A DNA stretch of 64,000 nucleotides from a virus (IMGVR_UViG_3300020331_000002); one strand, 5' to 3'; positions 12,844-47,089 are shown, counted from the first letter of the stretch. Notes: generated from the sequence alone by a model not told the origin. Numbers and translations: made by a program.

Positions 12844-13257
12844 TTATAGACTTAACAGAACTTTGTCTATCGCACCGTGTGTAAGCTTGAGATCAGGTAT
12901 CTGTAAACTGTCAGTGCTTATGTAACTTCTGTCTTGCACAAAGCGTAAGAATGTAAAGTTACCGCAGAAGGTAAATGCCGCAACGCCAGACTCAGGGTCA
13001 TCGTTTAACGGGAATTCGATGAAGGCGCCGTCACAAGAACACGTATAGCCTCGTAACGTTATATCAAACCAATCGTCGTCGTCTGGGTTTAGTGAAAGGG
13101 TGCCTTGTATCTTTATACGGCCTATGAAATCCTGATAGTGGATAGACACGGTGTGCAGGCCATCTACACTACCGTACCATCCGTCAGCGCGTACACGCTC
13201 ACCTACATAATTCCATTCTTGACCTGTATTAGATGTAAGAAGAACGGGTTGTCTCAT
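12844..13257 (-). CDS. Conserved phage protein, probably structural; first gene of the putative late operon
   Basis: 137 aa; DGWYG..DGLHTVS..FIGRIKIQGTL..DWFDI pattern; preceded by a TAAATA motif. Confidence 0.5.
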   Translation of the reverse strand: MRQPVLLTSNTGQEWNYVGERVRADGWYGSVDGLHTVSIHYQDFIGRIKIQGTLSLNPDDDDWFDITLRGYTCSCDGAFIEFPLNDDPESGVAAFTFCGNFTFLRFVQDRSYISTDSLQIPDLKLTHGAIDKVLLSL

Positions 13258-13290: not shown

Positions 13291-13296
13291 TATTTA
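13291..13296 (-). promoter_or_regulatory. TAAATA putative late promoter for the structural operon
   Basis: CTAAATA in a 53-bp gap, 34 nt before the ATG at 13257. Confidence 0.55.
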
Positions 13297-13310
13297 GTGA
13301 TACCATTTTA

Positions 13311-14156
13311 TTAGCTGGCTACTAGGCCGTATTGTATTACCGCTAGTGTTAGTGATTCTTTCGGGATTCCTAGTACGGTGATATCGTCTAGATGAAGCTC
13401 GATGGCATCACGTAGTTCGTTAGGTAGTTGCCCTTTGTTCATGTCATGATCCATGATATAACAACCGTAGCGATAGAAGTCCATTAAATCAGCTTTGGAT
13501 GGCATAAACACAGGCTTGCCCATAGTGATAGTCCAGCCTGTACTTTCTAATTTAGATTCAGTCATACCATTACAACGACTGATCACAGTGTTAGGTATAC
13601 CGATAGTGGTCTCGTCACGGACTAGTTTCACCACCGTCTCGTAGTCTTCTTTAAAGTTAAGCACAACAATGGCGTTGGCCATTCGCATACATATCTCGTC
13701 ATTGCGCTTATCATTATGAAGTCCAAATGTACGGTAATGTGCTATGATATAGAAGCTGCCTGAATCAGGATCCAGCTTTAAGATGTCGAGTGTACCGTTC
13801 ATCATACGCAGGTAATACTTTTCGTCACCGTTTTGGTATGCAACATTACCATCAACGCCGGTATTCACATACATTAAGTCGGATGCGATTTTTAATTTGC
13901 CGTCGAAGTCGTCTTCCCGTACTGCCGCTAAAAAGGTTTTAGAACTGCGGTACATCTTTACGCGCGGTGATTTGAATTGTTGCTCAATCACATATGATGC
14001 GCCGCGCACCCACTTTTCTACGCGTGCGGTGTGGTTCTTCAAATCTAGTACCTCTGCAGGTGATAGATAAGAAGTCTCCTTTTTGTGCACGTCGAGTAAG
14101 GTAGTCAAGCAAGCAATAAACGACGGTATCGATTTTGTATACTGTTTTTGATGCAT
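13311..14156 (-). CDS. Hypothetical protein, C-terminal-motif array (ends KESLTLAVIQYGLVAS)
   Basis: 281-aa ORF, last gene of the tandem array. Confidence 0.75.
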   Translation of the reverse strand: MHQKQYTKSIPSFIACLTTLLDVHKKETSYLSPAEVLDLKNHTARVEKWVRGASYVIEQQFKSPRVKMYRSSKTFLAAVREDDFDGKLKIASDLMYVNTGVDGNVAYQNGDEKYYLRMMNGTLDILKLDPDSGSFYIIAHYRTFGLHNDKRNDEICMRMANAIVVLNFKEDYETVVKLVRDETTIGIPNTVISRCNGMTESKLESTGWTITMGKPVFMPSKADLMDFYRYGCYIMDHDMNKGQLPNELRDAIELHLDDITVLGIPKESLTLAVIQYGLVAS

Positions 14157-14158
14157 AA

Positions 14159-15025
14159 TTAATCCACTACTTGGTACTGATCCTCAATACCGTTTAATTT
14201 GACTTGTGCTATTATATTGTTTTTAACCTCGTCGTCAAGGTTTTTAACGCGGCCAAGCTCATTTATGTTGATAGTTTGGTTATAAGAATATCCGTGATCG
14301 TTTAATAGTTCGCTTGTCTTTGGTTTTGCCACATCACTTATGTACTCTACGGTGCTATCAAGCAACGGACCGTAACGTCTGAGTACCAGCCATCCTTTCT
14401 TATACTCGATACCATGAGTCCCAAAGCTATGGTCTATCAATGCCAGCTTCGAGTTACCGTCAGTGATATCACTATCCGGGACTTCTTCACAGTATTGAAT
14501 TGTATCAACACGACCCGTCTGCGCGACAGTATGGTACCGCACAAACTTTCTGTCGCTGCGCACTACTAGCGAACAATTACCGACTGTGCCTTTGACTGCG
14601 TGTATCTCATAGCTCGGACTGTCATCAACACCTGCCGGTGTAAGATTCATTTTGGTAGACACGTCTGGACTGCCTGCTCGGTCGGCTGTGCGCGTTATTG
14701 TTATGAAGCATTTCCCGGACTCAGGAAACCCGGTGCTAATCCTCATGATACGCCGTATGGCACTAAATGCGACAACGTTTATCTTTGCGCCGGAACTTGT
14801 GGTGAATTTAGACTTAGTACCACGCAATATTGGCTCATTCAATTCGTTCCATTCAAACTCGCTTTCTACATAGTCAAAAAATAGGTTAGCAGCCGTGTTC
14901 ACTTGTACTATCATGTGGCGCAGTTTGGCAGCATCTGTAGCCGGGTGTTCTAGCGAAAATACCGTTTCAAGTCTCCTAACAATAATCTTTAGGTTAGCTT
15001 CGGCGATATCAAGAATACTTTCCAT
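14159..15025 (-). CDS. Hypothetical protein, C-terminal-motif array (LDDEVKNNIIAQVKLNG)
   Basis: 288 aa; TAATG-coupled to the upstream gene; C-terminal third resembles 15025..15858. Confidence 0.75.
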   Translation of the reverse strand: MESILDIAEANLKIIVRRLETVFSLEHPATDAAKLRHMIVQVNTAANLFFDYVESEFEWNELNEPILRGTKSKFTTSSGAKINVVAFSAIRRIMRISTGFPESGKCFITITRTADRAGSPDVSTKMNLTPAGVDDSPSYEIHAVKGTVGNCSLVVRSDRKFVRYHTVAQTGRVDTIQYCEEVPDSDITDGNSKLALIDHSFGTHGIEYKKGWLVLRRYGPLLDSTVEYISDVAKPKTSELLNDHGYSYNQTININELGRVKNLDDEVKNNIIAQVKLNGIEDQYQVVD

Positions 15026-15858
15026 TATTTTAAGTCTCCCCTAAGACGCAATTTCGCTATAGTTGCAACCTTTTCTTCATCGGATAAATTGTCAATCTCC
15101 ATGAAGCGATTGGCGCCTACTATGACACGGTACTGGTTGTTAAATACACCATCCAAGTCGCCTGCGACAGAGGTCAATAACGGTACCACATCCGGTGTTA
15201 TCTCGTCTACTATTCTTAACTTACTACTGTCCGCATGCTTAGTCACCAACCACCCGTTGATGTGCTTGACCGGAAGAGCCGGATCCTGCGGGTAGACTGC
15301 GCAACATGACACCGGCATGCCTCGTTCATCTTTGTCCGGCTCTTCTATCCTGTATACCAAGAGTGAAGTGTCTCCCATATACATGATGTGTGTTTCACCT
15401 GGGCTACGTAATACGACTGATGCACCGCGGTGCGGTTCGCGTGCTACAAAGCATGATATATTGTTTCCAGTAGATTCAAACCCGTATAAGGTAATCTCTG
15501 AATCCATAACGAAGCTTACTATACGGTCTGGCTTGTAAGTGTAATCAGGCGGCACTGTGCTATGCGCTGCGGCGATTACATTCGCAGTAGTAAAACGGTA
15601 ATAGTCAACTGTTTTTCTAAGCGTGGTGAGTGACTTGCTGGTAAAATATGCGGTGCCTTGTATATCACCGCGTGTCACGTCCCAGTACATGGTACCCATC
15701 GAATGCAAGGCAGTAACGCACCCAATTAAATCAAGAATGGTACCCGATATGGTATCTTTGATAGTTGTGCTTTTTATTGTAGCTAGCGAATCTTTGAGTA
15801 CAGCAGGGGCTTCAAGAACTGCCTCTGCTATTACTCTATCCATAGACGTAGTAGTCAT
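15025..15858 (-). CDS. Hypothetical protein, C-terminal-motif array (LSDEEKVATIAKLRLRG)
   Basis: 277 aa; ATGA-coupled. Confidence 0.75.
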   Translation of the reverse strand: MTTTSMDRVIAEAVLEAPAVLKDSLATIKSTTIKDTISGTILDLIGCVTALHSMGTMYWDVTRGDIQGTAYFTSKSLTTLRKTVDYYRFTTANVIAAAHSTVPPDYTYKPDRIVSFVMDSEITLYGFESTGNNISCFVAREPHRGASVVLRSPGETHIMYMGDTSLLVYRIEEPDKDERGMPVSCCAVYPQDPALPVKHINGWLVTKHADSSKLRIVDEITPDVVPLLTSVAGDLDGVFNNQYRVIVGANRFMEIDNLSDEEKVATIAKLRLRGDLK

Positions 15859-16601
15859 ACCATCCCCTGTATACGTAACATAGGCAGTGCTATATTATTG
15901 GCTAGTAAAGGTTCATATGTCGCTACTACTGATTTCAAACTATAGTACTCCACCCGCTCAATCAACCACCTGTGAACTGTCTTTAGTTCAACCGAGTCGC
16001 TGATTTTTTTCTTTTCCTGTGTTACTGCGTTGCTGTCTAATGTGTTGAAATCAAATTCAGTAGACCACGACACCCGATCAACATCACGGTTTTGCTCAGA
16101 CGTAATTTTAATAAAACCTTGCTCCGTTGTTCCGATTGTGTCTGTCACCGTAAACGAACCGTGGTAGCCGTGAGCCGGCACCACAAGATTATAACTAAGG
16201 TAACGATCACGTTCCATATCTTTAATGATGAACTTGCTATTGTTTAATAAAGCAGTGTACTTGAGCGCCCCTCTACTATAAAGGTTAACTACATGGCTAG
16301 TAACTGTTCCGCGCTTGTACTCCACATCGTATTGGGTAACAGGAGGCTTTGTTTGCTTAGCCGAGTTTCTAAGGCACCTATGATGCATGTGCATCATCAT
16401 CGCAACCATTGGACGTTTCTGCTTGTTGTGAAAGTTAAGGAACGCCCAGCGCACGAACAACATTAGACGCGATTCGTCTGAATTTGGCAGAGACTTTAAT
16501 GGCTTTCTAAAGCTGCGCGTTTTGTTATGCGCCGATGCTTGATAAGCCTTAGTCGGCAAATATACGTCGTCCCATATATGATTAATCATCTCATATCCCA
16601 A
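15855..16601 (-). CDS. Hypothetical protein, C-terminal-motif array (LPMLRIQGMV)
   Basis: 248 aa; the true start may be 16589 (ATGA overlap). Confidence 0.75.
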   Translation of the reverse strand: MGYEMINHIWDDVYLPTKAYQASAHNKTRSFRKPLKSLPNSDESRLMLFVRWAFLNFHNKQKRPMVAMMMHMHHRCLRNSAKQTKPPVTQYDVEYKRGTVTSHVVNLYSRGALKYTALLNNSKFIIKDMERDRYLSYNLVVPAHGYHGSFTVTDTIGTTEQGFIKITSEQNRDVDRVSWSTEFDFNTLDSNAVTQEKKKISDSVELKTVHRWLIERVEYYSLKSVVATYEPLLANNIALPMLRIQGMV

Positions 16602-17413
16602 TTTAATAATGCGTTACTTATTACTTCTTTTGAACAGAAGCCTCGTACCAATACCAATAAGTCACGTATGTTACCGAACGTCCTTATTTCATCACTACTG
16701 TCACGGTAAATCCACATAGAGCTAGTGAGTGTGAATTCTCCAGTATCGGAGTCATACGCGTAAGAGTGGTAATTCTTATCTAGTGTGTTCCAGTCAATTA
16801 CCGTAGTCCATATCGAGTACGACACCAACTTCGAAGGGAACCCGTCTCTAGTTGTGCCTTTATAGTTCATACGGTAAACTGACGTTTCTTTATAGCTGCG
16901 CCTAGAAGTAACAGTAAATTCCATTAGCCCTGTGCTAAACAGGCCACCTCGTATGAATTCTACCAAGACCACAGCAAAACCATCACCGGTAGCCATTTCT
17001 GTTAACGTTACGCCCCTATGCGTCGAATAATACACATTGTATACAAGTCGATCCTTAAAGTAAACATCAATATCAATGCCATATTCTCTAGCAGTCTGGT
17101 AGTGTACCTGTACCGTAATGTGGTAGTCGGTGTTGAAAGAAGTTTCTTCTTTTCCTATAGTCGTATTCATAACCTTTTCGACTGATCCGCCACCGCATAC
17201 TGCATAAAAGGACTTGAGCATGCGTTCTTTTAAGAGCCATGTACTGAGCGCGATGTCAGAACTATTCCCTTGTTTATTCTTCCTTAGTAGTGCACGACAC
17301 ACGGCGTACCAGGTTTTGCCATCTAATACTTGACTATACACATTATGCGAGTTCGTGGCGTGTTCGTGCATTGTAGAGAACAAATTACCAAACAGTTTCA
17401 AGTCAACATCCAT
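16586..17413 (-). CDS. Hypothetical protein, array member with a weak motif (SKEVISNALLNW)
   Basis: 275 aa; its start lies in the TAT-GGA codons of the upstream gene. Confidence 0.7.
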   Translation of the reverse strand: MDVDLKLFGNLFSTMHEHATNSHNVYSQVLDGKTWYAVCRALLRKNKQGNSSDIALSTWLLKERMLKSFYAVCGGGSVEKVMNTTIGKEETSFNTDYHITVQVHYQTAREYGIDIDVYFKDRLVYNVYYSTHRGVTLTEMATGDGFAVVLVEFIRGGLFSTGLMEFTVTSRRSYKETSVYRMNYKGTTRDGFPSKLVSYSIWTTVIDWNTLDKNYHSYAYDSDTGEFTLTSSMWIYRDSSDEIRTFGNIRDLLVLVRGFCSKEVISNALLNWDMR

Positions 17414-18347
17414 ACTGTAACCTCATCATAGCCATATCTTCTTCTGGCATTAATACTGTCCCGAGTTTTTCCTGTTCCACTAGTATGCGGCCGATGTGCG
17501 TACGCACAGAGTCGTAGTCGTGCGGGTTGCTAGCTGTAAGCAACCCAGACATAGAGAAGCAATCTATCTCAAGCCCATTATCATCCCGGCGGTATCTTAT
17601 CGCGCCTGCGCGGTATAGCCCCTTCGCCACAATAGTGCCAGTGCCATTAACACGGTAAGCAGAAAATACCGGCCTATTAACAACGATTTCTCGCATGCAC
17701 AATGACGCTGCCGCAGGACAGACTATCGGTATACTACTGAACGGCACTGTGAACTTCGCGGTGACTCGTAAGGCTAGTGTATTAGCGTCTTTTAAGAAAG
17801 GCTTCTCAGAAGGTATTGCGGCCTCTACGTGGTCGCAATTATAACCATCATGACGCAAGTAAATGGCCAATTGCTTGATTCTTTCATATATCGGGATAGC
17901 TGGATGGCCGGTAATCGTGTACTCGATACTAGACGTTCTCACTATGCCATTCGGGGTTTTTCTGCGCAGTTCGACAGTGACTGAGTAACTTGCCTCTATA
18001 CTAGTACTAACATTCGCAACGTACCGCACTTCAGCTAGGTAGTTCTTGCTAATTTGCCAGGCAACCGTCATACCGACATCAGCCCAATTGGCCTGTCTGG
18101 ACCTTATACTAAAAGTACCCAAGTCGTTTAGCATGAAAGCTTCGTTCAAATTCTTGTAAACGGATAACTTATCTGCTATCGCGGCTATCCCGGTACCTTC
18201 ATCAGAAACAAGTTTCAAAAACATCCAAAAGTCGAACGGTTCATCTGATCCTTTACCGATAGACGCGAAACGATATAATTGTCGGTAATCATTCATTGCG
18301 ATTTCAGCAATAGCAGCACTATGCCTACAAAGTGTTTCAAATACCAT
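17403..18347 (-). CDS. Hypothetical protein, C-terminal-motif array (MPEEDMAMMRLQYGC)
   Basis: 314 aa; 11-nt overlaps on both sides. Confidence 0.75.
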   Translation of the reverse strand: MVFETLCRHSAAIAEIAMNDYRQLYRFASIGKGSDEPFDFWMFLKLVSDEGTGIAAIADKLSVYKNLNEAFMLNDLGTFSIRSRQANWADVGMTVAWQISKNYLAEVRYVANVSTSIEASYSVTVELRRKTPNGIVRTSSIEYTITGHPAIPIYERIKQLAIYLRHDGYNCDHVEAAIPSEKPFLKDANTLALRVTAKFTVPFSSIPIVCPAAASLCMREIVVNRPVFSAYRVNGTGTIVAKGLYRAGAIRYRRDDNGLEIDCFSMSGLLTASNPHDYDSVRTHIGRILVEQEKLGTVLMPEEDMAMMRLQYGC

Positions 18348-19197
18348 AATTGAGAGCCATAATTGTTGCGTCAGTATCGTTTAGTATTCTCAGGCCTGTT
18401 TCATCTTCTGCCTCTCGTACTTCTTTTAAGTGATGCACAGGCGTCAACCAATCACCACTTAATTCGTCGTAGCCGAACCCAGCTCTTTGGTTTACGACAC
18501 GACCTTCAATGTCATAGTCCACTACTGCGCGAACCGGCTTGTACGGATTAATGACATAAAATTTAGTGCCTTTAGAAAACGGATAGTTATCGCCATATAC
18601 AGCAAATGGACGGCGTAGTATTTCCCTTCGCAACAGTATGCCGACGCCGGTGTATTCTTGGTTCTTTGTTAAGTAGCGCCTTGTGTATATGTTTCCCGGA
18701 ACATACGCAGGTATAGCAACATACCGCGACGCGCGAAATTCAACGGCGCCGGCTTTATACACCACCATTGTTAAATGGCGTGTGGCATTTGATCCACGAT
18801 CCACGGCACGGTGCCCGCCTGGCATTGACTTATGAAGACCCATAAACAAGCGTGTACGAGATGTGCGCGGGCTGAGGCGTATAACCGCATCATATCGCTT
18901 GCCGGTACCAAAATCAATACCATCTATGTATATGCCGACTGAGCGTATTCTCTCAGAGTTGCGCACGGTAATATTCAAGTCGCACATTTTGTATTCGTAC
19001 TCAAACCCTTCACCATCGCTATCCGATGCATACGGCAGCGCTTCTAATAATTTTTCAGCAAAGTATCGGACAGTATTCATGCGCCATTCAGTATATGTTT
19101 CATTCATACAGCGCATATAGATCCGCCCAAAGTGTCGCAAGCCGGACATAATAATACCTAGTGTGTGGTGGTTGAATGCTTCGTTTTTAGAAACCAT
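18337..19197 (-). CDS. Hypothetical protein, C-terminal-motif array (LNDTDATIMALNYGI)
   Basis: 286 aa; 11-nt overlaps. Confidence 0.75.
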   Translation of the reverse strand: MVSKNEAFNHHTLGIIMSGLRHFGRIYMRCMNETYTEWRMNTVRYFAEKLLEALPYASDSDGEGFEYEYKMCDLNITVRNSERIRSVGIYIDGIDFGTGKRYDAVIRLSPRTSRTRLFMGLHKSMPGGHRAVDRGSNATRHLTMVVYKAGAVEFRASRYVAIPAYVPGNIYTRRYLTKNQEYTGVGILLRREILRRPFAVYGDNYPFSKGTKFYVINPYKPVRAVVDYDIEGRVVNQRAGFGYDELSGDWLTPVHHLKEVREAEDETGLRILNDTDATIMALNYGI

Positions 19198-19942
19198 TTA
19201 ATATACCCATCCATATTTCTTTAGTTTCAACTGGTGCTAGCTTTCCTGTACTTTTGCGATAGGTGTTAACGAGCGACATCCGGCGTGCGAGTGTGCTTTC
19301 TTCACCATAGTCACGTAAAACACCAGACACTTCCGGTAAGTCAGTTATTTCGAGCGGTAGGCTCCATTCCCTAGTAACTCTTGTTTCACCTGTTTCGAAG
19401 TTCTTAGAACTCACTTGTATTGCAGGAATATGTGCTTTTATCGGTGCAGCATCAGTAAATGTAACGTTGCGGTATAGGTAACGTATAGTGATCTCGTCGT
19501 TTTCGTAATCAATAATAAGCTTCGAACCGCTCAATGAGGAAAACTGAATCGAAATATATTTATATCTACCGCCTCTGGACACTATATCAAGGCTTAGCGC
19601 GGGTTTACGACAAGCAGCAAGGCCGATTCGGCCTTTAAGGAATTCATGCGATACGCGTTCTTCTACGCCTCGTTTTTGATACACTGATAACTTAACTGTG
19701 TTGAAGTAGTCGCTGACTTTGCTACCGATTCGGAGGTGTGTTTGACGATTGCCTATTTCGTGCGTTTCGCTGAACACACTACCTTTTTTGACTTGGGTAA
19801 GGATACGTGCGTTGTGCTCAACTATTGCTTCAAGCTTTTCTCGAAGCGCATCGAAATCAGGTTTACGCGCACGAGATACGGTAGGTAGTATCTCCATCAC
19901 GTAACCATAGAACTCTTTAGTTAGGCCGTACATGTCAAACAT
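19187..19942 (-). CDS. Hypothetical protein, C-terminal-motif array (ETKEIWMGILNGF)
   Basis: 251 aa; own sigma70 promoter and AAGGAG RBS. Confidence 0.75.
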   Translation of the reverse strand: MFDMYGLTKEFYGYVMEILPTVSRARKPDFDALREKLEAIVEHNARILTQVKKGSVFSETHEIGNRQTHLRIGSKVSDYFNTVKLSVYQKRGVEERVSHEFLKGRIGLAACRKPALSLDIVSRGGRYKYISIQFSSLSGSKLIIDYENDEITIRYLYRNVTFTDAAPIKAHIPAIQVSSKNFETGETRVTREWSLPLEITDLPEVSGVLRDYGEESTLARRMSLVNTYRKSTGKLAPVETKEIWMGILNGF

Positions 19943-19968
19943 TAAATGCTCTCCTTTATCATAAGCAC

Positions 19969-19997
19969 AATATACGACACAAACAACCGTTAGTAAA
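19969..19997 (-). promoter_or_regulatory. Sigma70-type promoter internal to the array
   Basis: TTTACT-N17-TATATT, followed by AAGGAG. Confidence 0.7.
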
Positions 19998-20014
19998 GAA
20001 AGTTTTCTAATTGA

Positions 20015-20791
20015 TTATGTGTACTGTATTCTGTTTGTGAAAATCTCAGGATAAGTTAAAGGTGGTTGGTTATATTGTATGCGCTTTTTGTCGACATAGT
20101 CCATAGCGCTGTTGAAACTACGTTCACCGACAATTGCCCATTCTTGCTGCAATAAGCGCTCGCTAGACGGCGTGTCATTTACGAAATCGGTGTTTAATAC
20201 AAACTGGCGCGGTAGGTGTACTCGTAAAGGTACCCGTTCCTCCCAAAGTCTGCGCTGGGATAGGGTTTCGTAATTGGCCAGAGTTAGCCCTTCGTCAGTT
20301 AATGTCACTGAGCGAGATCCAAAAAAGTCAGACTCGGTGCGCATGCACAAACCGGCAGAGCTAAGTTCTGATTTCTTTGTTAAGTTAACATTCATAGAAA
20401 CGTCAAGAACGCGTCTATACGGGTGTGTTTTTCGTCCACGCTTGCTAGGATACGTGCGCAGTGCGTAAACGTTGAAAGACCAGTACATGCTCGCAAGGAC
20501 AGAGCGACCTACACGTATTTTAAATTCGCGGCCATTGACTACCAAATTTGGTGATGAATGCTCCCAAGTACCAGTGCTTTCATCGTTCTGGTTCCTGAGT
20601 TCAGCACAAGCCGTCGCGATTTCAACAATAGTAGTGTGCCATTTCGTGCGAAGCGCTCTCATGGTGTCATAAGTAGCTTGCGGATCGGGGCGTCTGACTT
20701 GACTAACACCGGTAACAATACCGAAGCCAGTTTTTATGAAATCAAGTGCACAGCTTTCAGCTGCCTGTATTATTGCTTCACTAGGCTTCAC
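20015..20791 (-). CDS. Hypothetical protein, C-terminal-motif array (LTYPEIFTNRIQYT)
   Basis: 258 aa; GTG start overlapping the upstream gene. Confidence 0.7.
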   Translation of the reverse strand: MKPSEAIIQAAESCALDFIKTGFGIVTGVSQVRRPDPQATYDTMRALRTKWHTTIVEIATACAELRNQNDESTGTWEHSSPNLVVNGREFKIRVGRSVLASMYWSFNVYALRTYPSKRGRKTHPYRRVLDVSMNVNLTKKSELSSAGLCMRTESDFFGSRSVTLTDEGLTLANYETLSQRRLWEERVPLRVHLPRQFVLNTDFVNDTPSSERLLQQEWAIVGERSFNSAMDYVDKKRIQYNQPPLTYPEIFTNRIQYT

Positions 20792-21503
20792 AAGTTACTC
20801 CGTGTTGTAAACAAAGCATTGAGCGCTCAGCGGGGTCAGCTACGTGCTTTAATTTGTCGTATACTTGCATTGCAAGCGATCCGCCCATATAGTTTCTACC
20901 GCGCTCAACGATAGTGCTATCCGGGTGTAAGCGCCATACAGCAAGTGTCGGTGAGTCCATAAACAGTGCGTTTTTGTTTGTAACGCCAACTTCGCGTGAA
21001 ATATTGATTATTTTTTCTTTCGGCGATGTTGAGTCAAACATTTTTTTATGACTTTTTTTCAACGATGCGTCAATGTTAAATGGGAAGTGGTATGTCGCTG
21101 CTTCAAGGCTGACGTGTTTAACACGATATTTGTCGTCGCTATATGAACTGAACACTGTACTCAGCTCAACATATGCACGGTCATGCAAGTTTACTCTGCC
21201 GTTTGAACGTTCTAACATACTAATTGTAGCAGTTACTCGCACGGTGCCCGGGCGATAATCTTCAAACGTATTGTTTTCAGCCACATCTAAAGTCAAGCAA
21301 TACTTGGTACGCTTTGTATCAAGCAATGTCATCGGGGCGCCGCGGTACAGATCAGCTTTGAGCAACGTATCACATAAACCAGGAATCAAATTAAGGATTT
21401 CTTCAGCGCCTTCGTACGATGCACTATCACGAAGTCTAAAGTGGTGACGCGCTTTGATTAACTTTTTCACAAACGTATTGATTTCAGCAGCTAATTCTTT
21501 CAT
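20781..21503 (-). CDS. Hypothetical protein, C-terminal-motif array (DPAERSMLCLQHG)
   Basis: 240 aa; ATGA-coupled. Confidence 0.75.
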   Translation of the reverse strand: MKELAAEINTFVKKLIKARHHFRLRDSASYEGAEEILNLIPGLCDTLLKADLYRGAPMTLLDTKRTKYCLTLDVAENNTFEDYRPGTVRVTATISMLERSNGRVNLHDRAYVELSTVFSSYSDDKYRVKHVSLEAATYHFPFNIDASLKKSHKKMFDSTSPKEKIINISREVGVTNKNALFMDSPTLAVWRLHPDSTIVERGRNYMGGSLAMQVYDKLKHVADPAERSMLCLQHGVTCEA

Positions 21504-22156
21504 AAACCTTGCAACCTTGTAAGAGTAATAAGTCTAGTCTTTTCTTCGTCAGCAATGTCTAATCTCTTTATCTGTTCAACAACACTGCCACCGCTATAAT
21601 TGGAATTATAACTGATTGTCTGTTTGGTTGTCAAGCAGATTTCTGCATTTTGTGTCATTGGTATTAGCGGAAACGTAAGACCAAGTTCAGATCGTAAGTA
21701 TTCATCCTCTCTAGTCCACGATATATAAGGCTTGCCTGACACATCATACAAAACAAGAGTAATGGAACTTGTACCAAATCTTGTGTCACTCATTACCACA
21801 GTAGTAGGGCTATTATGCTTTGTGATCACCGTAAGCCTACGTGTTACATGGCGCTCTTCGTCATTTGACAGTATTTGTTTTTGTATCGATAATAACTCAA
21901 ATCGCCTGGCCTCTACACGAGTTGCGGGCTTACGTGCGCTCACACCTACTTTATGTGTGTCAGTATCGTATATGATCGCATCGCGCATCATAGTCGCGTT
22001 CGGGCATACTTCTTTCACTGCGAGGCGACTTAAGCTTTCCATCTGCTCAATAAACAATACCATGGCATCGATATCATCTGCTCTTCTTAGTGAACGAACA
22101 TTGCTGGTTACCAGCTTGCCTATGTGGTTTACAATTTCTAATATTTCATCATACAT
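21500..22156 (-). CDS. Hypothetical protein, C-terminal-motif array (IADEEKTRLITLTRLQGL)
   Basis: 218 aa; 8-nt overlap with the upstream gene. Confidence 0.75.
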   Translation of the reverse strand: MYDEILEIVNHIGKLVTSNVRSLRRADDIDAMVLFIEQMESLSRLAVKEVCPNATMMRDAIIYDTDTHKVGVSARKPATRVEARRFELLSIQKQILSNDEERHVTRRLTVITKHNSPTTVVMSDTRFGTSSITLVLYDVSGKPYISWTREDEYLRSELGLTFPLIPMTQNAEICLTTKQTISYNSNYSGGSVVEQIKRLDIADEEKTRLITLTRLQGL

Positions 22157-22931
22157 GTTGAAGCCTTAGCAATGCGATACGAGACGGGTCAACTTTGTCT
22201 TTATTATTACCTAGACGATTGCGTATGTGTATGTCAATATCATTTCGTATGAAATACGCATTACCGCTAAACTGTTTATCGTCAGCGCTAAATACCGATG
22301 TTTCAATTTCCGGCGATTCCAAAAACAACGGATAGCTTTCTACATTACCTACGTTACGTTTGAACTGCATATATGCGGTGCCTGTTTGCGACAATATTTT
22401 AATAGGTAACTTAGACATACTGTACGACACACGAATTACTGATCTCGGATCAGACCCGCTCTTACCAGGCACATTGGCTGATCGAATAGATAACTTAAAT
22501 GGTTTCTTTGCTAGGTACGAGTTGGATATTGTTACCGTAAAGCCGTTGTCGCTCTCTGAATTATAAAAGGTACTTATTGTCAACGTGATCTCGTGTATGA
22601 ATACCGATAGTGACAGGCTTTCTGCCTTAAACGGATCCTTTATAAGTTGTATCTGTCTAGGGTATAAACCAGTCGAGTGTGCTAATTCAGCATAAGACAT
22701 CGCTTCCACGACTTTGCGGGCTTTGTTGGCTATCGATACATGTGCGCGTCTAGTTCGCTTATACTTGCCTCTAGTTGTAGTCAGATACAACCTGTTCTTT
22801 AACACACACTCGATCAGATCTTTAGTGGTTTTCATATACCGCTTATAGCCAGGCGTGTTATCGTATACTCTACGATTCCTAATAGGCTCATATACTCGTT
22901 GCGAGAACGTATCTTTATCCATAATGTCCAT
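22149..22931 (-). CDS. Hypothetical protein, C-terminal-motif array (VDPSRIALLRLQHV)
   Basis: 260 aa, basic. Confidence 0.75.
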   Translation of the reverse strand: MDIMDKDTFSQRVYEPIRNRRVYDNTPGYKRYMKTTKDLIECVLKNRLYLTTTRGKYKRTRRAHVSIANKARKVVEAMSYAELAHSTGLYPRQIQLIKDPFKAESLSLSVFIHEITLTISTFYNSESDNGFTVTISNSYLAKKPFKLSIRSANVPGKSGSDPRSVIRVSYSMSKLPIKILSQTGTAYMQFKRNVGNVESYPLFLESPEIETSVFSADDKQFSGNAYFIRNDIDIHIRNRLGNNKDKVDPSRIALLRLQHV

Positions 22932-22932
22932 G

Positions 22933-23835
22933 TTAATATTGCTCTCCGAGTACGAACAATGCTGCGGTAGACCGCTTTAGTATAGGCCCATGCATCTCTT
23001 CAACCAATTTGGCTTCTTCTAAATACTGACGCAATGTTAGCGTTATATCAAACCCGTAACGCCAACGTCTTAGGTTTAGTTTTAGTTTGTTAGTGCCTGA
23101 TACCTGCACATACGTAGAAACCACAGGCACAAACGGTCTGAACAATTCTAGTGATTCGTACATCCAATGATCCGCGGTACATAGTGCCTTATCAGTCACA
23201 GTACATGACATCATACGGACGTCTGTATGTTTATTTGCCACAAACACTATCTCGCCAATATTAGACGAAAGACGAACCTTTCTTTCAGCTGAAGGTATAC
23301 CGTCCCAGTTAGACCATAATCCAGTGCGTGCGGTTGCTGTTACCATACGGTGCTCCATATAATGCTCATATGAAGCCCTAGACCAGCGCCTATAGAATAC
23401 CGCACTTGGTCCATATAACCTTGTCTTAACGAGTTTGCTATGTTTACTGAATGTTATTTGCACCGTATACACGACGTCGTTATATTCAATAGTAACACCG
23501 TAACTTTCACAAGTGTAATCACCATCCACGATACATACGTTAACGGGATCAACAGTGTGTATCCGCTTACGCGTCAATGTTACTTTTACGTCAGTGCCAG
23601 GCAAACGACACAAGTAAACTGGGTTGAAGTCACCTGACTTTAAGATGGCCGGGCCAATTTCTTCATCAACGAACGTTATTAAGTCGCCCAGCATCTTATG
23701 CACTGCTTTACCTACAGCGACAACGCCTACATCTTCCCGTGGACCAAATCTAAACGACACCTTTCGTCTAGTTTCAACACGTTCTTTGCGTAGGCGCATT
23801 AGGTGCGTCAGTAGTTTGTTTCCTGGATTACGCAT
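22933..23835 (-). CDS. Hypothetical protein, array member with a weak motif (RSTAALFVLGEQY)
   Basis: 300 aa; its start lies in the TAT-GCG codons of the upstream gene. Confidence 0.7.
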   Translation of the reverse strand: MRNPGNKLLTHLMRLRKERVETRRKVSFRFGPREDVGVVAVGKAVHKMLGDLITFVDEEIGPAILKSGDFNPVYLCRLPGTDVKVTLTRKRIHTVDPVNVCIVDGDYTCESYGVTIEYNDVVYTVQITFSKHSKLVKTRLYGPSAVFYRRWSRASYEHYMEHRMVTATARTGLWSNWDGIPSAERKVRLSSNIGEIVFVANKHTDVRMMSCTVTDKALCTADHWMYESLELFRPFVPVVSTYVQVSGTNKLKLNLRRWRYGFDITLTLRQYLEEAKLVEEMHGPILKRSTAALFVLGEQY

Positions 23836-24700
23836 AATTCAACCTCATCAAGGCAAACTGTTCTTCTGTTAGACGATCACCGATGCACCACTCAGCCACT
23901 GTTTCGCAAGAATTGCTTATCTCTGGCAGGGACTCGTAATCAGCGAGATACACGTTTTCTGCTATTACGGTGTTACTAGTATCGTAATACTTGTCGAAAC
24001 TAGCAAACATCATGGCAGACTCTTCATTGTTGAGAATATTAGCCCCGGGGTGGTAACGACACGAGATTGCATTAGGACCTGGGTTATCGTAGTCAAACCG
24101 TCTCATATACACTATCTGTGACCCGTGTTTATATGCAAGTGAATGTCCACGCACCCAGATCGCACATAGCCCTCTTCTCGAGGAGGCATACGCTAGATGA
24201 ATAGGGCGCTCGATAGACATGTCTTTGTTTGGGCTGCTCATGTTTATAGTCAACATGTAGTCGTTTCTGGGCTGGTGTTTATAAAAGTGTAACGTGAAGT
24301 CAACATGCACATTACCAGCGACCACAATAGTTACCCGACGAGAAAACCTGTCCCGCAAAGTTACTTTGGGATCATACTCTGCTACTTCTTCAAGTTCGAC
24401 TTTGGGAATGAAATCCACGTTGTATAGCTTAGACGCAATATAAGTAGATAACGATGAGCTGCCGACAAGTCGAAACACTGCGCGTTCAACCGGGCGGCCT
24501 TCATCATCCATTACACGGTTAATACGTTTGGCTACTGCTAGGTGAGTCATCTTGCAATCGTCGGAAAGTGCATTGCTTATAGCCTTTATGTTGGCCACAA
24601 CATCATACCCAAACACGTAGGAATCCTTATAATTTTCCATCACCGTACTCCAATTTAAGTCGTATACGTTCTTCGGCTGATACGCGGGATAGTATGTCAC
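23828..24700 (-). CDS. Hypothetical protein, C-terminal-motif array (LTEEQFALMRLNYA)
   Basis: 290 aa as called; the true start may be 24640 (MENYKD). Confidence 0.75.
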   Translation of the reverse strand: MTYYPAYQPKNVYDLNWSTVMENYKDSYVFGYDVVANIKAISNALSDDCKMTHLAVAKRINRVMDDEGRPVERAVFRLVGSSSLSTYIASKLYNVDFIPKVELEEVAEYDPKVTLRDRFSRRVTIVVAGNVHVDFTLHFYKHQPRNDYMLTINMSSPNKDMSIERPIHLAYASSRRGLCAIWVRGHSLAYKHGSQIVYMRRFDYDNPGPNAISCRYHPGANILNNEESAMMFASFDKYYDTSNTVIAENVYLADYESLPEISNSCETVAEWCIGDRLTEEQFALMRLNYA

Positions 24701-25367
24701 TAAACTCTACCGGCGAGTCATTTAACATCCACTGTGACCTTAGTACCTGTTTCACCTTACTAAAGTCATCAATATCGTACTGGACTGTCATAGTAGCAGG
24801 CCGTTCTAATGAATGAATGACAAAATCAGTAGTTATTTGATCTGCATTCATATTAGCCGGATTTAGGTCGGTATTACTATAATAACCATATGACGTAACA
24901 CATGGCGTATGGCCGTTAACAATTTTTTTCGTACCGTTTATGTGTTCTGTGGCAAGGTTCATTGACGTTGACGAGTTATAAACATACTTGACCGCGTTTG
25001 ACGTACCGACACCTTTAATAATCATTACAGTAGGCGGCCATTTTCCTTGGCGAGACTCTTCAAGTGAGCGGGTGGCAATCGCTGCCATTGTTTCACGAGT
25101 AAACTGGGTGTGGAATGTCATACCGATACTAGTACGCGTGGCCGGACTCGTAAACATTACGCTAGTCACCAACCTACGATTGGCACTCACAACGATGCCG
25201 TATTGTCGTTTGATTGCAGGTGCGCGGCCGTTTATGTAAGTGACTGCACAATCATGTAGAGGCGGTACGCCCACTATGGTTGTCATTGTAGTCATCTTAA
25301 AGATAAGGTCTTCAAGATTTCTAGGCAATGCAGATAAACTGGATACCGTGTCTAGCATCGTTGTCAT
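24627..25367 (-). CDS. Hypothetical protein, C-terminal-motif array (VSAEERIRLKLEYG)
   Basis: 246 aa. Confidence 0.75.
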   Translation of the reverse strand: MTTMLDTVSSLSALPRNLEDLIFKMTTMTTIVGVPPLHDCAVTYINGRAPAIKRQYGIVVSANRRLVTSVMFTSPATRTSIGMTFHTQFTRETMAAIATRSLEESRQGKWPPTVMIIKGVGTSNAVKYVYNSSTSMNLATEHINGTKKIVNGHTPCVTSYGYYSNTDLNPANMNADQITTDFVIHSLERPATMTVQYDIDDFSKVKQVLRSQWMLNDSPVEFSDILSRVSAEERIRLKLEYGDGKL

Positions 25368-25433
25368 TAATGTTGCCTTCTTTGTTAAACGTGTATATTA
25401 TTAGATTAACAAAATCGGCAACAAGACACAAGA

Positions 25434-26258
25434 TTATCCGTAATTTAATCTATATAAGAGGTATTCTGAAGGGCTAAGGTGTCGTTTAAGATAGTAGTCA
25501 CCCATGCCACCGAGTGCGGATTTCAAATCACATAAATCAATCAGTGTATATGAGCTATGCACTGGTCCATCGCTGTTCGGTGGCCTATGATGTGATTCAT
25601 ACATAGCAAAGCATTCGTCAACTGCAACGTTTTTTACTCTACCGCTTGGTCTAAAGTCGTCATGAAGAGGCATCCAGAGTTTAATTGACCGCCCAAACGG
25701 CATAGGCGCGTCAGTCATTTTACGACCTAATACTTTAGCCGGGTTTGGAAGATACGATACCCGTTGGTGATAGTCACTTATGGATATAGATAATACTGAC
25801 CTCCCGCTTGATATTCGCACATCAAGAGCAGGTATACCGTGTGCATGGTTATTCAGAGTGAGCTTTGTTATGAAACGAGCGGTATCATTTGGGTTTATTA
25901 AACTAAGATATTCTGACTTATTAATCTCCCAAACCTGATCTTTACTGGTGACTGATTTTCCGTTTATCACTAAATCAGTCATAGGCCAAGCTGGTGACAC
26001 AGTATCGCCGACATACCTTATACGTGCCTTCACAATTATCCCTGACAGTTCAGTGACACAAGAGTGGATGCATTTCAAATCATTTGCTAGTTGATCAGCA
26101 AAATTACCGAAGTCCTTTTTATGACGTGTCAGTTTACGCACTCGGCGAAAACTACCCAACACGTCATCGAAGTTAGACGACAGCTCTACTTTCTTGTCAC
26201 CAAATTCTGCATAACTAATCATTGCATCTCCAAGAGTGAACAGAACCTGCTTGTACAT
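25434..26258 (-). CDS. Hypothetical protein, C-terminal-motif array (LSPSEYLLYRLNYG)
   Basis: 274 aa; first gene of the array. Confidence 0.75.
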   Translation of the reverse strand: MYKQVLFTLGDAMISYAEFGDKKVELSSNFDDVLGSFRRVRKLTRHKKDFGNFADQLANDLKCIHSCVTELSGIIVKARIRYVGDTVSPAWPMTDLVINGKSVTSKDQVWEINKSEYLSLINPNDTARFITKLTLNNHAHGIPALDVRISSGRSVLSISISDYHQRVSYLPNPAKVLGRKMTDAPMPFGRSIKLWMPLHDDFRPSGRVKNVAVDECFAMYESHHRPPNSDGPVHSSYTLIDLCDLKSALGGMGDYYLKRHLSPSEYLLYRLNYG

Positions 26259-26812
26259 TCAGGCTTCTTGCTGACTAGATTAAAACGATTCTTAATGCGC
26301 GTGATACATAGCTTGATAAGACCTGCTTTTTGGGTAACATCTTCTGAATACTCAAGACCGCGTCGATATACAAACCCAGCATTATACGACGCAAGGGCCA
26401 TAGGATGATTGCCACCACGTATGCGTAACCAGTAGTTTATCTCGTTTATGGCTAGACGCGCACCGAGACCCTGATCCATCACCAAATCTTGGGCAAGTAC
26501 GTTTGCCATAAACGATTCCCTGTCTATTCCAAGACGGCTTGTAGCTGTGTCGATATGTATTGCATAAGGACCAAAGCTAGGGTCATTTATGTTCATCAAA
26601 TACTTGCCGAGATTACTTTCCCGCCACGCAATGGCAGGAAGCACAGTCTCGAGACCGTACTCCTTGCCAAACTCGTAGCTGGTTACCAATACGTTTGCTT
26701 GATCGCTGTTTATCCTGATGTTCGCGTCACAGAACTCATCTATAGCCTGGTGCTGTGTACTACTCACAGATAATCCCAACGTAACTCCTACGACAGCGAA
26801 TATGTTAATCAT
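26219..26812 (-). CDS. SLT-family lytic transglycosylase with a hydrophobic N-terminus
   Basis: AIAWRES (catalytic Glu) and ALASYNAG motifs of the lysozyme-like SLT family. Confidence 0.8.
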   Translation of the reverse strand: MINIFAVVGVTLGLSVSSTQHQAIDEFCDANIRINSDQANVLVTSYEFGKEYGLETVLPAIAWRESNLGKYLMNINDPSFGPYAIHIDTATSRLGIDRESFMANVLAQDLVMDQGLGARLAINEINYWLRIRGGNHPMALASYNAGFVYRRGLEYSEDVTQKAGLIKLCITRIKNRFNLVSKKPECTSRFCSLLEMQ

Positions 26813-28116
26813 AGCGTTGTTATGTCATTAATCAAGTGGGCTTCAAACTTGTTGCCGCCGTTCGCTTCTTCATCAATAAGACGCTTGGCGAACATAGTTA
26901 TCTCGCGCACGGTTTCGTAGGGGCTGCACTTGTTTTCTTTTGACAACAAGAGAATCGCTTTAATCATTGCCGCTTGTGCTTGGTGTGTATGCAACTCAGG
27001 ATCGTAGTTGTCTGCCACTTCCAAGTAACCGTAGTACTGCATCATACTGAACACAGTGTTATCGAGCCGGAAACTAGAATCGTACATCGATCTTCCATTG
27101 TTGCGAAGAATTTGTATTCCCTCGTTGGCAGCCTGTAGTCCAACTGTCGCAACAATTATATCGTATGCTGTCTGTACCACATATCCGGAGAATGACATAA
27201 ACGGATCACTAGGTGCGCCCGGTAGTTCACTAAGAGCAAGACCAAGCAATGCCCCGCTCTGGCCGCAACTCGAGTGCATCGGATTAGTAAACCAGTGTAT
27301 GGTATTGTGAAAGGACGCGTGTGCATCTGTACGGTAGTACTCGTTGTTCTTGAATACCTCGGCTTTTAGGCTTTCGTCAAAACCGATGAATTTTTTCTTA
27401 TAACTCATGAACGCGTTAACCAAAGACTGTGTTCTGCGGGTAGCTTCCCTGGAGTCATATAGGTGCCCGATTTTTGCGCATGACTGCGTCATTTCGATTG
27501 GCGAAAACCCGGTCAGCAAAGCTTGTGTTATATTGTCGGCGTACGGCCATTTGGTCAGGTTACAAAAGCCACTCAACGTGGCCGCGTGGTTGAATAACAG
27601 TGACACCTCGCACGAGTCAGCATAAGAGAAAGTATTAGAGTTCACTTTATTCAAAAAGGTGCCGCAGTCCTCTCGATCAGCCAGCAGGCGCTCAGCAGTC
27701 GTTAAACCGGTTTTATCAGCACGGATCATTCCGTATACGAGCATCGACAGAAGCTTGTACGGGAAGATTGTCGTACCACGTTCCGTATCATTTGTGCTGT
27801 GCATGCCCGGGTGCTCAGGAATAAACGGATCCGGTTTATGTGCTGCCTTTGCCAAAAAGCTTTCAGAATGAGGTTCTTGGTTAACTGACGCTAGCTTGTC
27901 AGCAAGTGCGTTAGACAGTTCAAGCTGTTTGAGTACTTCTTTCTTCTCGTTCGCCTCTCTGATAGACTGCACGGTGACCCTGGGCTGCACTACCGAATCA
28001 GAGTCGTGTAATTCTGTAGCCAATCGGTACGGTGTTAAGACACCATGTGCGTTCATCTCTTGCATGCTAAATTCCTTTGTCTTAGCCGATGCGATGGGTT
28101 GGTTTCCGGTGTTCAT
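26809..28116 (-). CDS. Hypothetical protein
   Basis: 435-aa coupled ORF; no motif recognised. Confidence 0.7.
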   Translation of the reverse strand: MNTGNQPIASAKTKEFSMQEMNAHGVLTPYRLATELHDSDSVVQPRVTVQSIREANEKKEVLKQLELSNALADKLASVNQEPHSESFLAKAAHKPDPFIPEHPGMHSTNDTERGTTIFPYKLLSMLVYGMIRADKTGLTTAERLLADREDCGTFLNKVNSNTFSYADSCEVSLLFNHAATLSGFCNLTKWPYADNITQALLTGFSPIEMTQSCAKIGHLYDSREATRRTQSLVNAFMSYKKKFIGFDESLKAEVFKNNEYYRTDAHASFHNTIHWFTNPMHSSCGQSGALLGLALSELPGAPSDPFMSFSGYVVQTAYDIIVATVGLQAANEGIQILRNNGRSMYDSSFRLDNTVFSMMQYYGYLEVADNYDPELHTHQAQAAMIKAILLLSKENKCSPYETVREITMFAKRLIDEEANGGNKFEAHLINDITTL

Positions 28117-43112: not shown

Positions 43113-43679
43113 TTATTTTAAGTCGTTGATAGACTTGATTACCTCGTCAATCAAGCCATACTCCTTGGCTTCAGCTGCTGACATAAAATTGTCGCGGTCA
43201 GTATCAGCTTCAATCTTATCGAGCGGCTGTTTGGTGAAATCAGCGAGCATTCGGTTTAGTTTGTCTTTAATAGACAGAATCTCTTTGGCGTGTATTTCAA
43301 AGTCAGATGCTTGGCCTTGGAATCCACCTAAAGGCTGATGAATCATTACACGGCAATTAGGTAGCGCGTAACGGACATCGCCGGCTGCCAATAAGAACGA
43401 ACCCATCGAACAACACTGACCGGTGCCAACTGTAATAATACGAGAGTTCACAAACTTCATCGTATCATACATGGATAAGCCCGCAGTTACGGCGCCGCCT
43501 GGTGAATTAACGTATACGTAAATGTCAGCTTCCATCTTGGATTCAAGGTAAAGTATCTGAGCATTTACCGACTCAGCCATGTGATCATTTACAGGACCGT
43601 TAATTAGTACAATGCGGTCTTCCAAAAGTCGTGAAGCCAAGTCAACTACACGGTTATTCTCTATGATCATTGGAATCAT
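43113..43679 (-). CDS. clpP: ATP-dependent Clp protease proteolytic subunit ClpP
   Basis: SRLL.DRI, NSPGG, CCSMGS (Ser), MIHQP (His) and DRDNFMSA (Asp); catalytic triad intact. Confidence 0.95.
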
Positions 43680-46285: not shown

Positions 46286-47089
46286 TCATCCGTAATTTAA
46301 TCGCAACATAGCAAGCTCGGATTCACTGAGCTCAGTGTGTTGCGCAAATTCAAGGACATCTTTACACCAGAGACCATTATAGTGAAATTCAGCGATACTA
46401 TCGCCGCTAGCGGATTCAACTACTACCGCAGGAGAGTGTGTATGATGCATTCTACCAAAACGATGATAGACAATCCCTTCTTTGCAATCTACTGTACCCA
46501 ATGAATTGACATATATTGTGCCGCCGTATTGTACCAAAGAAGGGATGCCGTTGAAAGAATGAGGGCGCCAGCGGACAGACGAAGAACGATTTTTGTTATA
46601 AGGGTGCCTACTATCCATCCCGTTTGTGTCGGCAATGAAAGTAGATAACCTTTCATAATAAACTTCAGTCTCACCGGGCGCAGTATTAAAGACGCTATGT
46701 TCGATTTTTTTGAACTCACTACCTAGTTCGTCAGTGTATACCTCCACAGTAGCATTTTTAACAGGACCTGCATACTCTTCAATTATGGCAGCTTTACCGC
46801 CATCTCTTACAAAATTAGATCCGTTAAACCACGAGTGGGTGACAATACTGTATTCTTTTGTCTGGTTCGTGTACTTGGTAATAAACGCAGGTTCGTCGTT
46901 CTCCGACTTCACTTCACCTGTCTTGTCACGTATCCAGGTTTCTAGCACTATCTTTTCATTTATTTTCTGGGGCCTTTTTGCATCGTCGTCCATAAAAATG
47001 CTTGGTGCTATACCTAAAGTTTGAACAATGTGTTTGTTATCTGATTTAGTATACTCACGTATACTGTAAGAGTAGTTATCCATACTCAT
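46286..47089 (-). CDS. Hypothetical protein; outlying member of the C-terminal-motif family (ELSESELAMLRLNYG)
   Basis: 267 aa; own sigma70 promoter. Confidence 0.75.
   Translation of the reverse strand: MSMDNYSYSIREYTKSDNKHIVQTLGIAPSIFMDDDAKRPQKINEKIVLETWIRDKTGEVKSENDEPAFITKYTNQTKEYSIVTHSWFNGSNFVRDGGKAAIIEEYAGPVKNATVEVYTDELGSEFKKIEHSVFNTAPGETEVYYERLSTFIADTNGMDSRHPYNKNRSSSVRWRPHSFNGIPSLVQYGGTIYVNSLGTVDCKEGIVYHRFGRMHHTHSPAVVVESASGDSIAEFHYNGLWCKDVLEFAQHTELSESELAMLRLNYG

Follow-up and report, generated by a model that had tools for sequence, protein, structure and literature searches.

Why should sixteen neighbouring phage genes, whose products show no recognisable likeness along most of their length, end in much the same short peptide? 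The question is raised by a 64,000-nucleotide (nt) stretch of viral DNA (IMGVR_UViG_3300020331_000002; hereafter the window), which forms the end of a phage genome of 310,672 bp that has direct terminal repeats. The phage, a distant relative of PA5oct, Atu_ph07 and Phosso, is a marine jumbo phage whose lineage recurs in the marine metagenomes of seven studies. Packed into positions 13311-26258 of the window are 16 consecutive minus-strand open reading frames (ORFs; g01 to g16) of 218-314 amino acids (aa). An earlier note, made from the sequence alone, had proposed that these proteins are variable bodies bearing a constant docking tag. The tag itself proves to be real, selected as a peptide, specific to C-termini and portable; no partner was found for the proposed docking. 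Our best explanation, which we put forward tentatively, is that the array consists of tandem, probably paralogous, lineage-specific early or middle genes with a shared docking helix.

A C-terminal motif common to the array

The last 25 aa of each protein were searched by expectation maximisation (EM) for a gapless motif of 10 columns, and one motif was found in all 16 proteins. Its leave-one-out total of 100.8 bits compares with 42.3 ± 11.9 bits (maximum 72.5) for 60 random sets of 16 C-termini, a difference of about 5 standard deviations: the motif is thus enriched over other C-termini in the genome, a check that the earlier note had proposed. A neighbour-gene control, in which 23 blocks of 16 genes were treated in the same way, gave 43.6 ± 11.2 bits. 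Together with its upstream part the motif reads hydrophobic-[S/T/D]-x-E/D-E/D-x-h-x-h-h-[R/K]-[L/I]-[Q/N]-[Y/H]-G, a conserved segment of about 14 aa. All C-terminal peptides quoted in the note were found in the proteins. The tag is strong in about 10 and at best weak in g02, g05, g08 and g13. Taken individually, it is strong in g04, g06, g09, g10, g12 and g14, moderate in g01, g03, g07, g11, g15 and g16, weak in g13, and inseparable from background in g02, g05 and g08. By established helix-capping rules the sequence would form an N-capped helix with a hydrophobic staple and a Gly C-cap. This helix is followed by 0-11 variable residues, and the linkers that precede it are also variable.

Similar segments were sought in the rest of the genome. 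A scan of 88,864 positions in 374 other gene-like ORFs gave nine matches of at least 11 bits, six of them within 25 aa of the C-terminus: the tag is specific to C-termini. Two of the outside carriers, x17 and x18, are excellent; x17 is the first gene of a leftward unit and has no overlapping neighbour. Beyond this genome, a 23-column tag profile matches gp371 of PA5oct at E=0.0028, 11 residues from its end (the BLASTP comparison of gp371 with x17 gives E=0.19), while six other phage genomes totalling 2.2 Mb, those of five jumbo phages (Phosso, Atu_ph07 and three Rak2-like phages) and of T4, contain nothing that it matches at E<=10. The paper describing PA5oct does not mention gp371. Since the tag occurs on proteins of 267, 145 and 119 aa, one of them in PA5oct, the helix is not confined to one body type or to one phage; it behaves as a portable module.

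Weaker tag-like segments, 8-24 aa from the C-terminus, are present in four further proteins (121, 109, 184 and 303 aa) and are kept in their 90% clusters; these proteins may be additional tag carriers. A separate array of five tandem minus-strand genes (genome C1 97882-102498) has its common module at the other end: the proteins start MPIRFRGPVRPRKL...PDPINxPVVRDN and then diverge, and are distinct from the C-terminal tag family. Two candidate relationships were rejected. MORN_2 (PF07661), a language-model lead of rank 32 for x17 and gp371, is matched by nothing in either this genome or PA5oct at E<=10. For a resemblance of the tag to the first helix of sigma70 region 4, or of a helix-turn-helix (HTH), there is no Pfam match, the tag profile retrieves nothing at E<=10 from all Protein Data Bank (PDB) sequences, and the ORFs end right after the helix.

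Dual coding and selection on the peptide

At about nine junctions the codons of the tag also encode the Shine-Dalgarno sequence or the start codon of the next gene, a feature overlooked in the earlier note. The [Y/H/N]-[G/A/V] codons of g14, g12, g06, g07 and g08 contain the ATG with which the next gene starts (TATGG, CATGT, AATGG); in the first three of these genes the Arg codon AGG stands 7 nt before that ATG, and in g03, g04, g10 and g15 Gly or Glu codons make GGAG or GGGG 5-10 nt before the next start. AGG accounts for 9% of Arg codons genome-wide, yet it is found at 4/4 of the Arg positions able to act as a Shine-Dalgarno sequence (with g11 included, where the next start comes 11 nt later).

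These observations would fit a purely nucleotide-level origin, in which the tag only reflects, at the protein level, the translation start signals of the following gene (ribosome-binding site and start codon), copied with each duplication. Such an artefact is nevertheless highly unlikely. The motif is carried without an overlapping gene by g16, g09, g01, g02, x17 and x18, with the codons TAC, AAC, AGA or CGA: the Arg codon is AGA in g16 and g09 and CGA in x17, and the Tyr codon is TAC in g16, g09, g01 and x17. Even g04 and g03, which do overlap the next gene, use CGT for the tag Arg. The N-cap and the acidic half of the motif lie 30-42 nt upstream, beyond any ribosome-binding site, and synonymous differences within the tags occur at about the gene-wide rate. 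Because the peptide is kept while its codons vary (AGG, AGA, CGA or CGT for Arg, TAT or TAC for Tyr) and synonymous change proceeds, the tag is selected as protein, and a nucleotide artefact as sole cause is largely refuted. The translation signals are a second constraint, and help to account for likeness persisting at the gene ends alone.

The bodies, the locus and its expression

The earlier note had seen little similarity between the bodies, and the comparisons made here agree. Searches with blastp and phmmer, all against all and against every ORF of the genome, returned nothing significant; hhalign of tag-free ortholog profiles (2-3 sequences each; global and local) was no better than reversed controls (p=0.11), and a leave-one-out full-length hidden Markov model (HMM) detected no homology between bodies. 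Nor were relatives found in databases: there was no match in Pfam for the 16 members (E<=0.01-0.1), x17 or x18, none in PHROGs for any of the 16 members or x17, and none in PADLOC among the 10 proteins tested (nine of the 16 members plus x17). The g12 profile had no match among PDB sequences and found only its own ortholog among 1.84 billion representatives; g06, g12 and x17 retrieved close orthologs only from 5.8 billion protein clusters, and g06 found nothing in INPHARED and IMG/VR. Structure prediction was equally uninformative. The ESM Atlas model of the g12 ortholog has a predicted local distance difference test (pLDDT) score of 0.33, with only weak HTH-like language-model leads, and the AlphaFold2 (AF2) models of g11 (from a 45-sequence family alignment) and x17 reach pLDDT 40 and 33: all are too poor for a fold search.

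Some signs of a common origin are nonetheless present. Compared with other proteins 180-350 aa long, the middle of the bodies is more beta-prone (p=7e-5), and a weak similarity, spanning the last 72-82 aa, links g02 with g03 and g10 with g12. An EM search for a second motif gave z=2.0-2.8 at -95..-18 and z=3.1 in the N-terminal 70 aa, both too weak to use. That the proteins are so uniform in size, and their genes tandem and coupled, speaks for common descent, which the beta-rich composition and the similarity of the two pairs also favour: the bodies are probably old tandem paralogs and not truly unrelated.

The description of the locus in the earlier note is borne out almost throughout. The 16 ORFs are present as reported, all on the minus strand, and their size is indeed uniform, given that the range of 218-314 aa contains just 12.3% of the genome's other genes. 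Most neighbours overlap: with the start of g14 corrected, 11 of the 15 internal junctions do so by 1-16 nt, the others being one abutting pair, one gap of 2 nt and gaps of 66 and 72 nt. Longest-ORF calls give 12 overlapping junctions. The sequences of relatives show that the true starts of g04, g14, g15 and g16 are shorter than the longest ORF, and because they place the starts concerned later, the 74-nt overlap of g14 on g15 disappears as an artefact.

Two contigs of related marine phages, L001 from a Logan assembly and the 306-kb Tara Oceans scaffold L003, carry all 16 genes in unchanged order, with identities of 73-96%. The ratio of nonsynonymous to synonymous substitution (dN/dS) against L003 is 0.13-0.37 for each of the 16 genes, which indicates purifying selection and, since it holds in every gene, that all 16 are real coding genes. 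The array is at the same time faster-evolving than its surroundings (ortholog identity 73-95%, vs 94-99% for flanking genes). Identity forms a mosaic across it: g12 is 96% identical to L001 but 83% to L003, and g06 is 73% identical to both. Such a mosaic, as read from the sequences, indicates recombination within the array among co-circulating phages. Just upstream of the array and of a transglycosylase-like gene lies a 435-aa ORFan (window 26809-28116, minus strand) whose identity to its Tara ortholog is only 77%, against 94-98% for its neighbours; its rate of change matches that of the array, and the two could share a functional link.

The position of the array is peculiar to this lineage. 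In PA5oct the homologue of a 137-aa virion-protein gene (12844-13257 in the window) follows directly after ClpA, and the homologues of the two genes are separated by 0.6 kb in Atu_ph07 and by 2.2 kb in Phosso, whereas here the distance is about 17 kb, array included. The array is therefore a lineage-specific insertion. ClpA (30660-32915) lies 4.4 kb upstream of the array on the same strand, a ClpP-like gene is found at 43113-43679, and the region is flanked by virion-protein genes.

The earlier note had also suggested that sigma70-type promoters feed the array and that it is expressed early. The promoter remark holds only in part: the best promoter-like sites are conserved in relatives, although sigma70 promoter-like sites as a class are not enriched over the array (36 found vs 35.7 expected). 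Within g11 both hexamers of a TTGACA-18-TATAAT site (12/12 consensus) are kept in L003, where the spacer has several changes, and the gap between g09 and g08 holds TTGACT-17-TATATT in both relatives. A CTAAATA motif occurs on the minus strand only at 13297, after g01. In four metatranscriptome runs from two studies, contigs of at least 99% identity cover most of 13.0-26.5 kb and none cover 11.2-12.9 kb; these contigs, which give neither expression levels nor transcript ends and are supportive only, suggest RNA rather than contaminating DNA, and a transcription unit apart from the adjacent late genes. Given the conserved promoters and the RNA-library contigs, early or middle expression is plausible. 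A contig from metatranscriptome run X17 has ten non-templated T before window position 16004 on the plus strand; these correspond to an A-tail on a minus-sense RNA whose end lies in g04, possibly a polyadenylated decay intermediate.

Table 1. Genes of the array, further carriers of the tag and putative transcription signals (window coordinates unless another sequence is named; asterisks mark stop codons).
Feature	Coordinates	Strand	Description
g16	25434..26219	-	261 aa from likely true start (longest ORF to 26258); ends LSPSEYLLYRLNYG*; downstream gene not overlapping
g15	24627..25358	-	243 aa; ends VSAEERIRLKLEYGDGKL*; E-Y codons hold GGAG and D-G codons hold ATG, both for g14
g14	23828..24640	-	270 aa (start corrected); ends LTEEQFALMRLNYA*; Arg AGG is the Shine-Dalgarno sequence, TATGC contains the g13 ATG
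g13	22933..23835	-	300 aa; weak tag only (STAALFVLGEQY*)
g12	22149..22931	-	260 aa; ends DPSRIALLRLQHV*
g11	21500..22156	-	218 aa; ends DEEKTRLITLTRLQGL*; internal promoter-like site
g10	20781..21503	-	240 aa; ends DPAERSMLCLQHGVTCEA*
g09	20015..20791	-	258 aa; ends PEIFTNRIQYT*; downstream gene not overlapping
g08	19187..19942	-	251 aa; tag weak (KEIWMGILNGF*)
g07	18337..19197	-	286 aa; ends LNDTDATIMALNYGI*
g06	17403..18347	-	314 aa; ends MPEEDMAMMRLQYGC*; fastest-evolving member, 73% identity to orthologs
g05	16586..17413	-	275 aa; doubtful tag (SKEVISNALLNWDMR*)
g04	15855..16589	-	244 aa (start corrected); ends IALPMLRIQGMV*
g03	15025..15858	-	277 aa; ends SDEEKVATIAKLRLRGDLK*
g02	14159..15025	-	288 aa; tag weak (NIIAQVKLNG + 9 aa)
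g01	13311..14156	-	281 aa; ends ESLTLAVIQYGLVAS*; last gene of the array
x17	46286..47089	-	267 aa; 20 kb outside the array; best tag copy (LSESELAMLRLNYG*); downstream gene not overlapping
x18	genome 85265-85702		145 aa; ends ...EAVTLLKLQHGGV
PA5oct gp371 (EST35_0371)	L013:1557-1916	+	119-aa hypothetical protein; helix VPKEHIMMLKLQHG, then 10-residue acidic tail
Weaker carrier	genome C1 57302-57667	+	possible additional carrier
Weaker carrier	genome C1 58297-58626	+	possible additional carrier
Weaker carrier	genome C1 118446-119000	-	possible additional carrier
Weaker carrier	genome C1 161867-162778	-	possible additional carrier
Promoter-like site in g11	21605..21634	-	perfect TTGACA-18-TATAAT, about 100 nt before g10 start
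Sigma70-like promoter, g09-g08 gap	19969..19997	-	TTTACT-17-TATATT
CTAAATA late-promoter-like motif	13291..13297	-	40 nt before the 137-aa virion-protein gene; downstream boundary of array transcription unit

A structural or a docking helix

The history that we envisage for the array begins with tandem duplication, followed by divergence until the beta-rich bodies became unrecognisable; at least one further family member (x17) would reside elsewhere in the genome. Throughout, selection would have kept a C-terminal alpha-helix of about 14 residues, with its hydrophobic staple, S/T/D N-cap, E-E, h-x-h-h-[RK]-[LI]-[QN]-[YH] and Gly C-cap. We infer that this helix docks the many bodies on one shared partner, which could be a phage or host hub, or the family's own subunits. 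Conservation of the tag is strengthened by dual coding, in that the Arg (AGG) or Gly (GGN) codons double as Shine-Dalgarno sequence and the [Y/H/N]-[G/A/V] codons contain the ATG of the next, translationally coupled gene. Several points weigh against this account. No partner was found, and a predicted complex of ClpA 1-150 with x17 226-267 scored 0.00, which speaks neither for nor against binding. No fold was obtained, homology of the bodies is not demonstrable by sequence and profile tests, and four members carry a weak tag at best. Orthologs of g10 and of g12 differ more in the tag region than in the body. The hydrophobic positions of the tag cover more than one helix face, which would suit a buried structural helix too.

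A purely structural role is accordingly a strong rival, possible although we consider it somewhat doubtful. Here the proteins are, as in a case that the earlier note had named as refuting its own proposal, full-length diverged paralogs of one fold that needs no partner, and the helix is simply the best-conserved structural element, packed for example on an N-terminal helical hairpin. The uniform size, the tandem coupled genes, the beta-prone mid-body and the modest N-terminal motif all fit, as does the spread of hydrophobic positions over the helix surface; the low-confidence AF2 model of g11 has helices only at both ends (H2-25, H29-50, H192-197, H203-215). Yet x17, x18 and gp371 share the helix while differing in size, and inspection of their N-termini by eye suggests no helical hairpin; the x17 model, poor as it is, lacks an N-terminal helix. 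Profile comparison detects no homology of the bodies, and both the linkers before the helix and the 0-11 residues after it are variable. If instead the helix is an address label, a set of 18 or more fast-evolving early proteins would be gathered at one hub, for which the phage's own ClpA/ClpP, among the candidates of the earlier note, is the most attractive choice. In this unlikely but specific form of the docking hypothesis the proteins are an adaptor or substrate library: the bodies bind targets, the helix docks on the ClpA N-domain, and interchangeable adaptors send host proteins (e.g. defence factors) to degradation. Amphipathic helices are known ligands of Clp/Hsp100 N-domains. Compared with the gene order of PA5oct, the array has been inserted immediately downstream of ClpA, a ClpP-like gene is present, and expression appears non-late. 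Short terminal elements on substrate-binding bodies are also used by AAA+ adaptors (the XB peptide of SspB on ClpX, the VipB helix on ClpV-N), although these bear no sequence likeness to the tag. Set against this, PA5oct, Atu_ph07 and Phosso have ClpA but no such array, the variable residues past the Gly disfavour a C-terminal degron read from its free end, and the complex prediction with the ClpA N-domain is uninformative on binding.

Two further docking sites are suggested by T4, and we consider both extremely improbable. Sliding-clamp-binding tails, as on T4 gp43, gp55 and gp33, would tether the proteins to a phage clamp. Like the tag they are C-terminal, acidic and hydrophobic: gp43 ends DYEEKASLDFLFG (...EEKASLDFLFG), finishing in aromatic-Gly, and gp55 ends SLDFLYEAND; the T4 tails have the same h-x-h-x-aromatic-G spacing as MRLQYG. 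They are, moreover, interchangeable between proteins (PMC2988020). All T4 clamp tails, however, are near-identical, and the candidate polymerase of this phage, a 977-aa ORF (genome C1 72030-74963, minus strand), ends GEVFGNLFTFN, a tail unlike the tag and shared by no other protein here. No clamp was found in the genome with PF02916, PF09116 or T4 gp45, T4 gp55 finds no homologue, and no relatives of the ORFans beside the clamp loader were found. The GEVFGNLFTFN tail of the 977-aa ORF resembles the T4/RB69 clamp-binding epitope and has no tag-like score; directly downstream of that ORF, a 293-aa gene (genome C1 71174-72055, minus strand) has no match to the Pfam gp45 models or to T4 gp45. The other site is the capsid, for which the tag would be a targeting or cargo-loading signal, a C-terminal analogue of the T4 capsid-targeting sequence (CTS) or of encapsulin cargo peptides. 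The region has virion-protein genes on its flanks, and unrelated bodies with one short terminal peptide are the CTS pattern: the T4 internal proteins that bear the CTS (IPI-III and Alt, with their hypervariable locus) are likewise unrelated-looking, fast-evolving and encoded side by side. The CTS, however, is N-terminal, is cleaved by the prohead protease (L/I-x-E) and belongs to late, virion-packaged proteins, whereas here a capped helix lies within the last 25 aa of all carriers and the genes are apparently non-late: the late-promoter motif comes only after the array, and the RNA-library contigs lie over the array and not over the adjacent late genes. PA5oct gp371 carries no electrospray-ionisation tandem mass spectrometry (ESI-MS/MS) virion flag in the PA5oct record, in which many neighbouring genes are flagged. 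The capsid, one of the partners that the earlier note had in mind, is thus a poor fit with non-late expression.

Among phages, known cases of diversified proteins with a short terminal peptide in common, such as the T4 CTS proteins, have it at the N-terminus and are late and virion-bound; to our knowledge, a fully capped C-terminal helix common to some 18 ORFan proteins that are expressed apart from the late genes has not been described. The organisation also resembles that of the poxvirus ankyrin/PRANC proteins, a large paralog family in which a variable binding body is joined to a constant C-terminal docking element. PRANC, in contrast, is a multi-helix F-box-like domain (about 40-50 aa) that binds Skp1, whereas the members of the array have a single conserved helix, bodies without recognisable repeats and no Pfam family. 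Were the helix to dock on ClpA/ClpP, the adaptor library would be a bacterial-virus counterpart of the poxvirus Ank/PRANC proteins and SCF. More generally, if the shared helix docks on one hub, it would provide a handle on the function of a large block of viral dark matter. The locus also offers a case of dual coding, in which translation signals and a protein motif constrain the same nucleotides, and a double constraint of this kind can account for old tandem arrays in which nothing but the gene ends is still recognisable.

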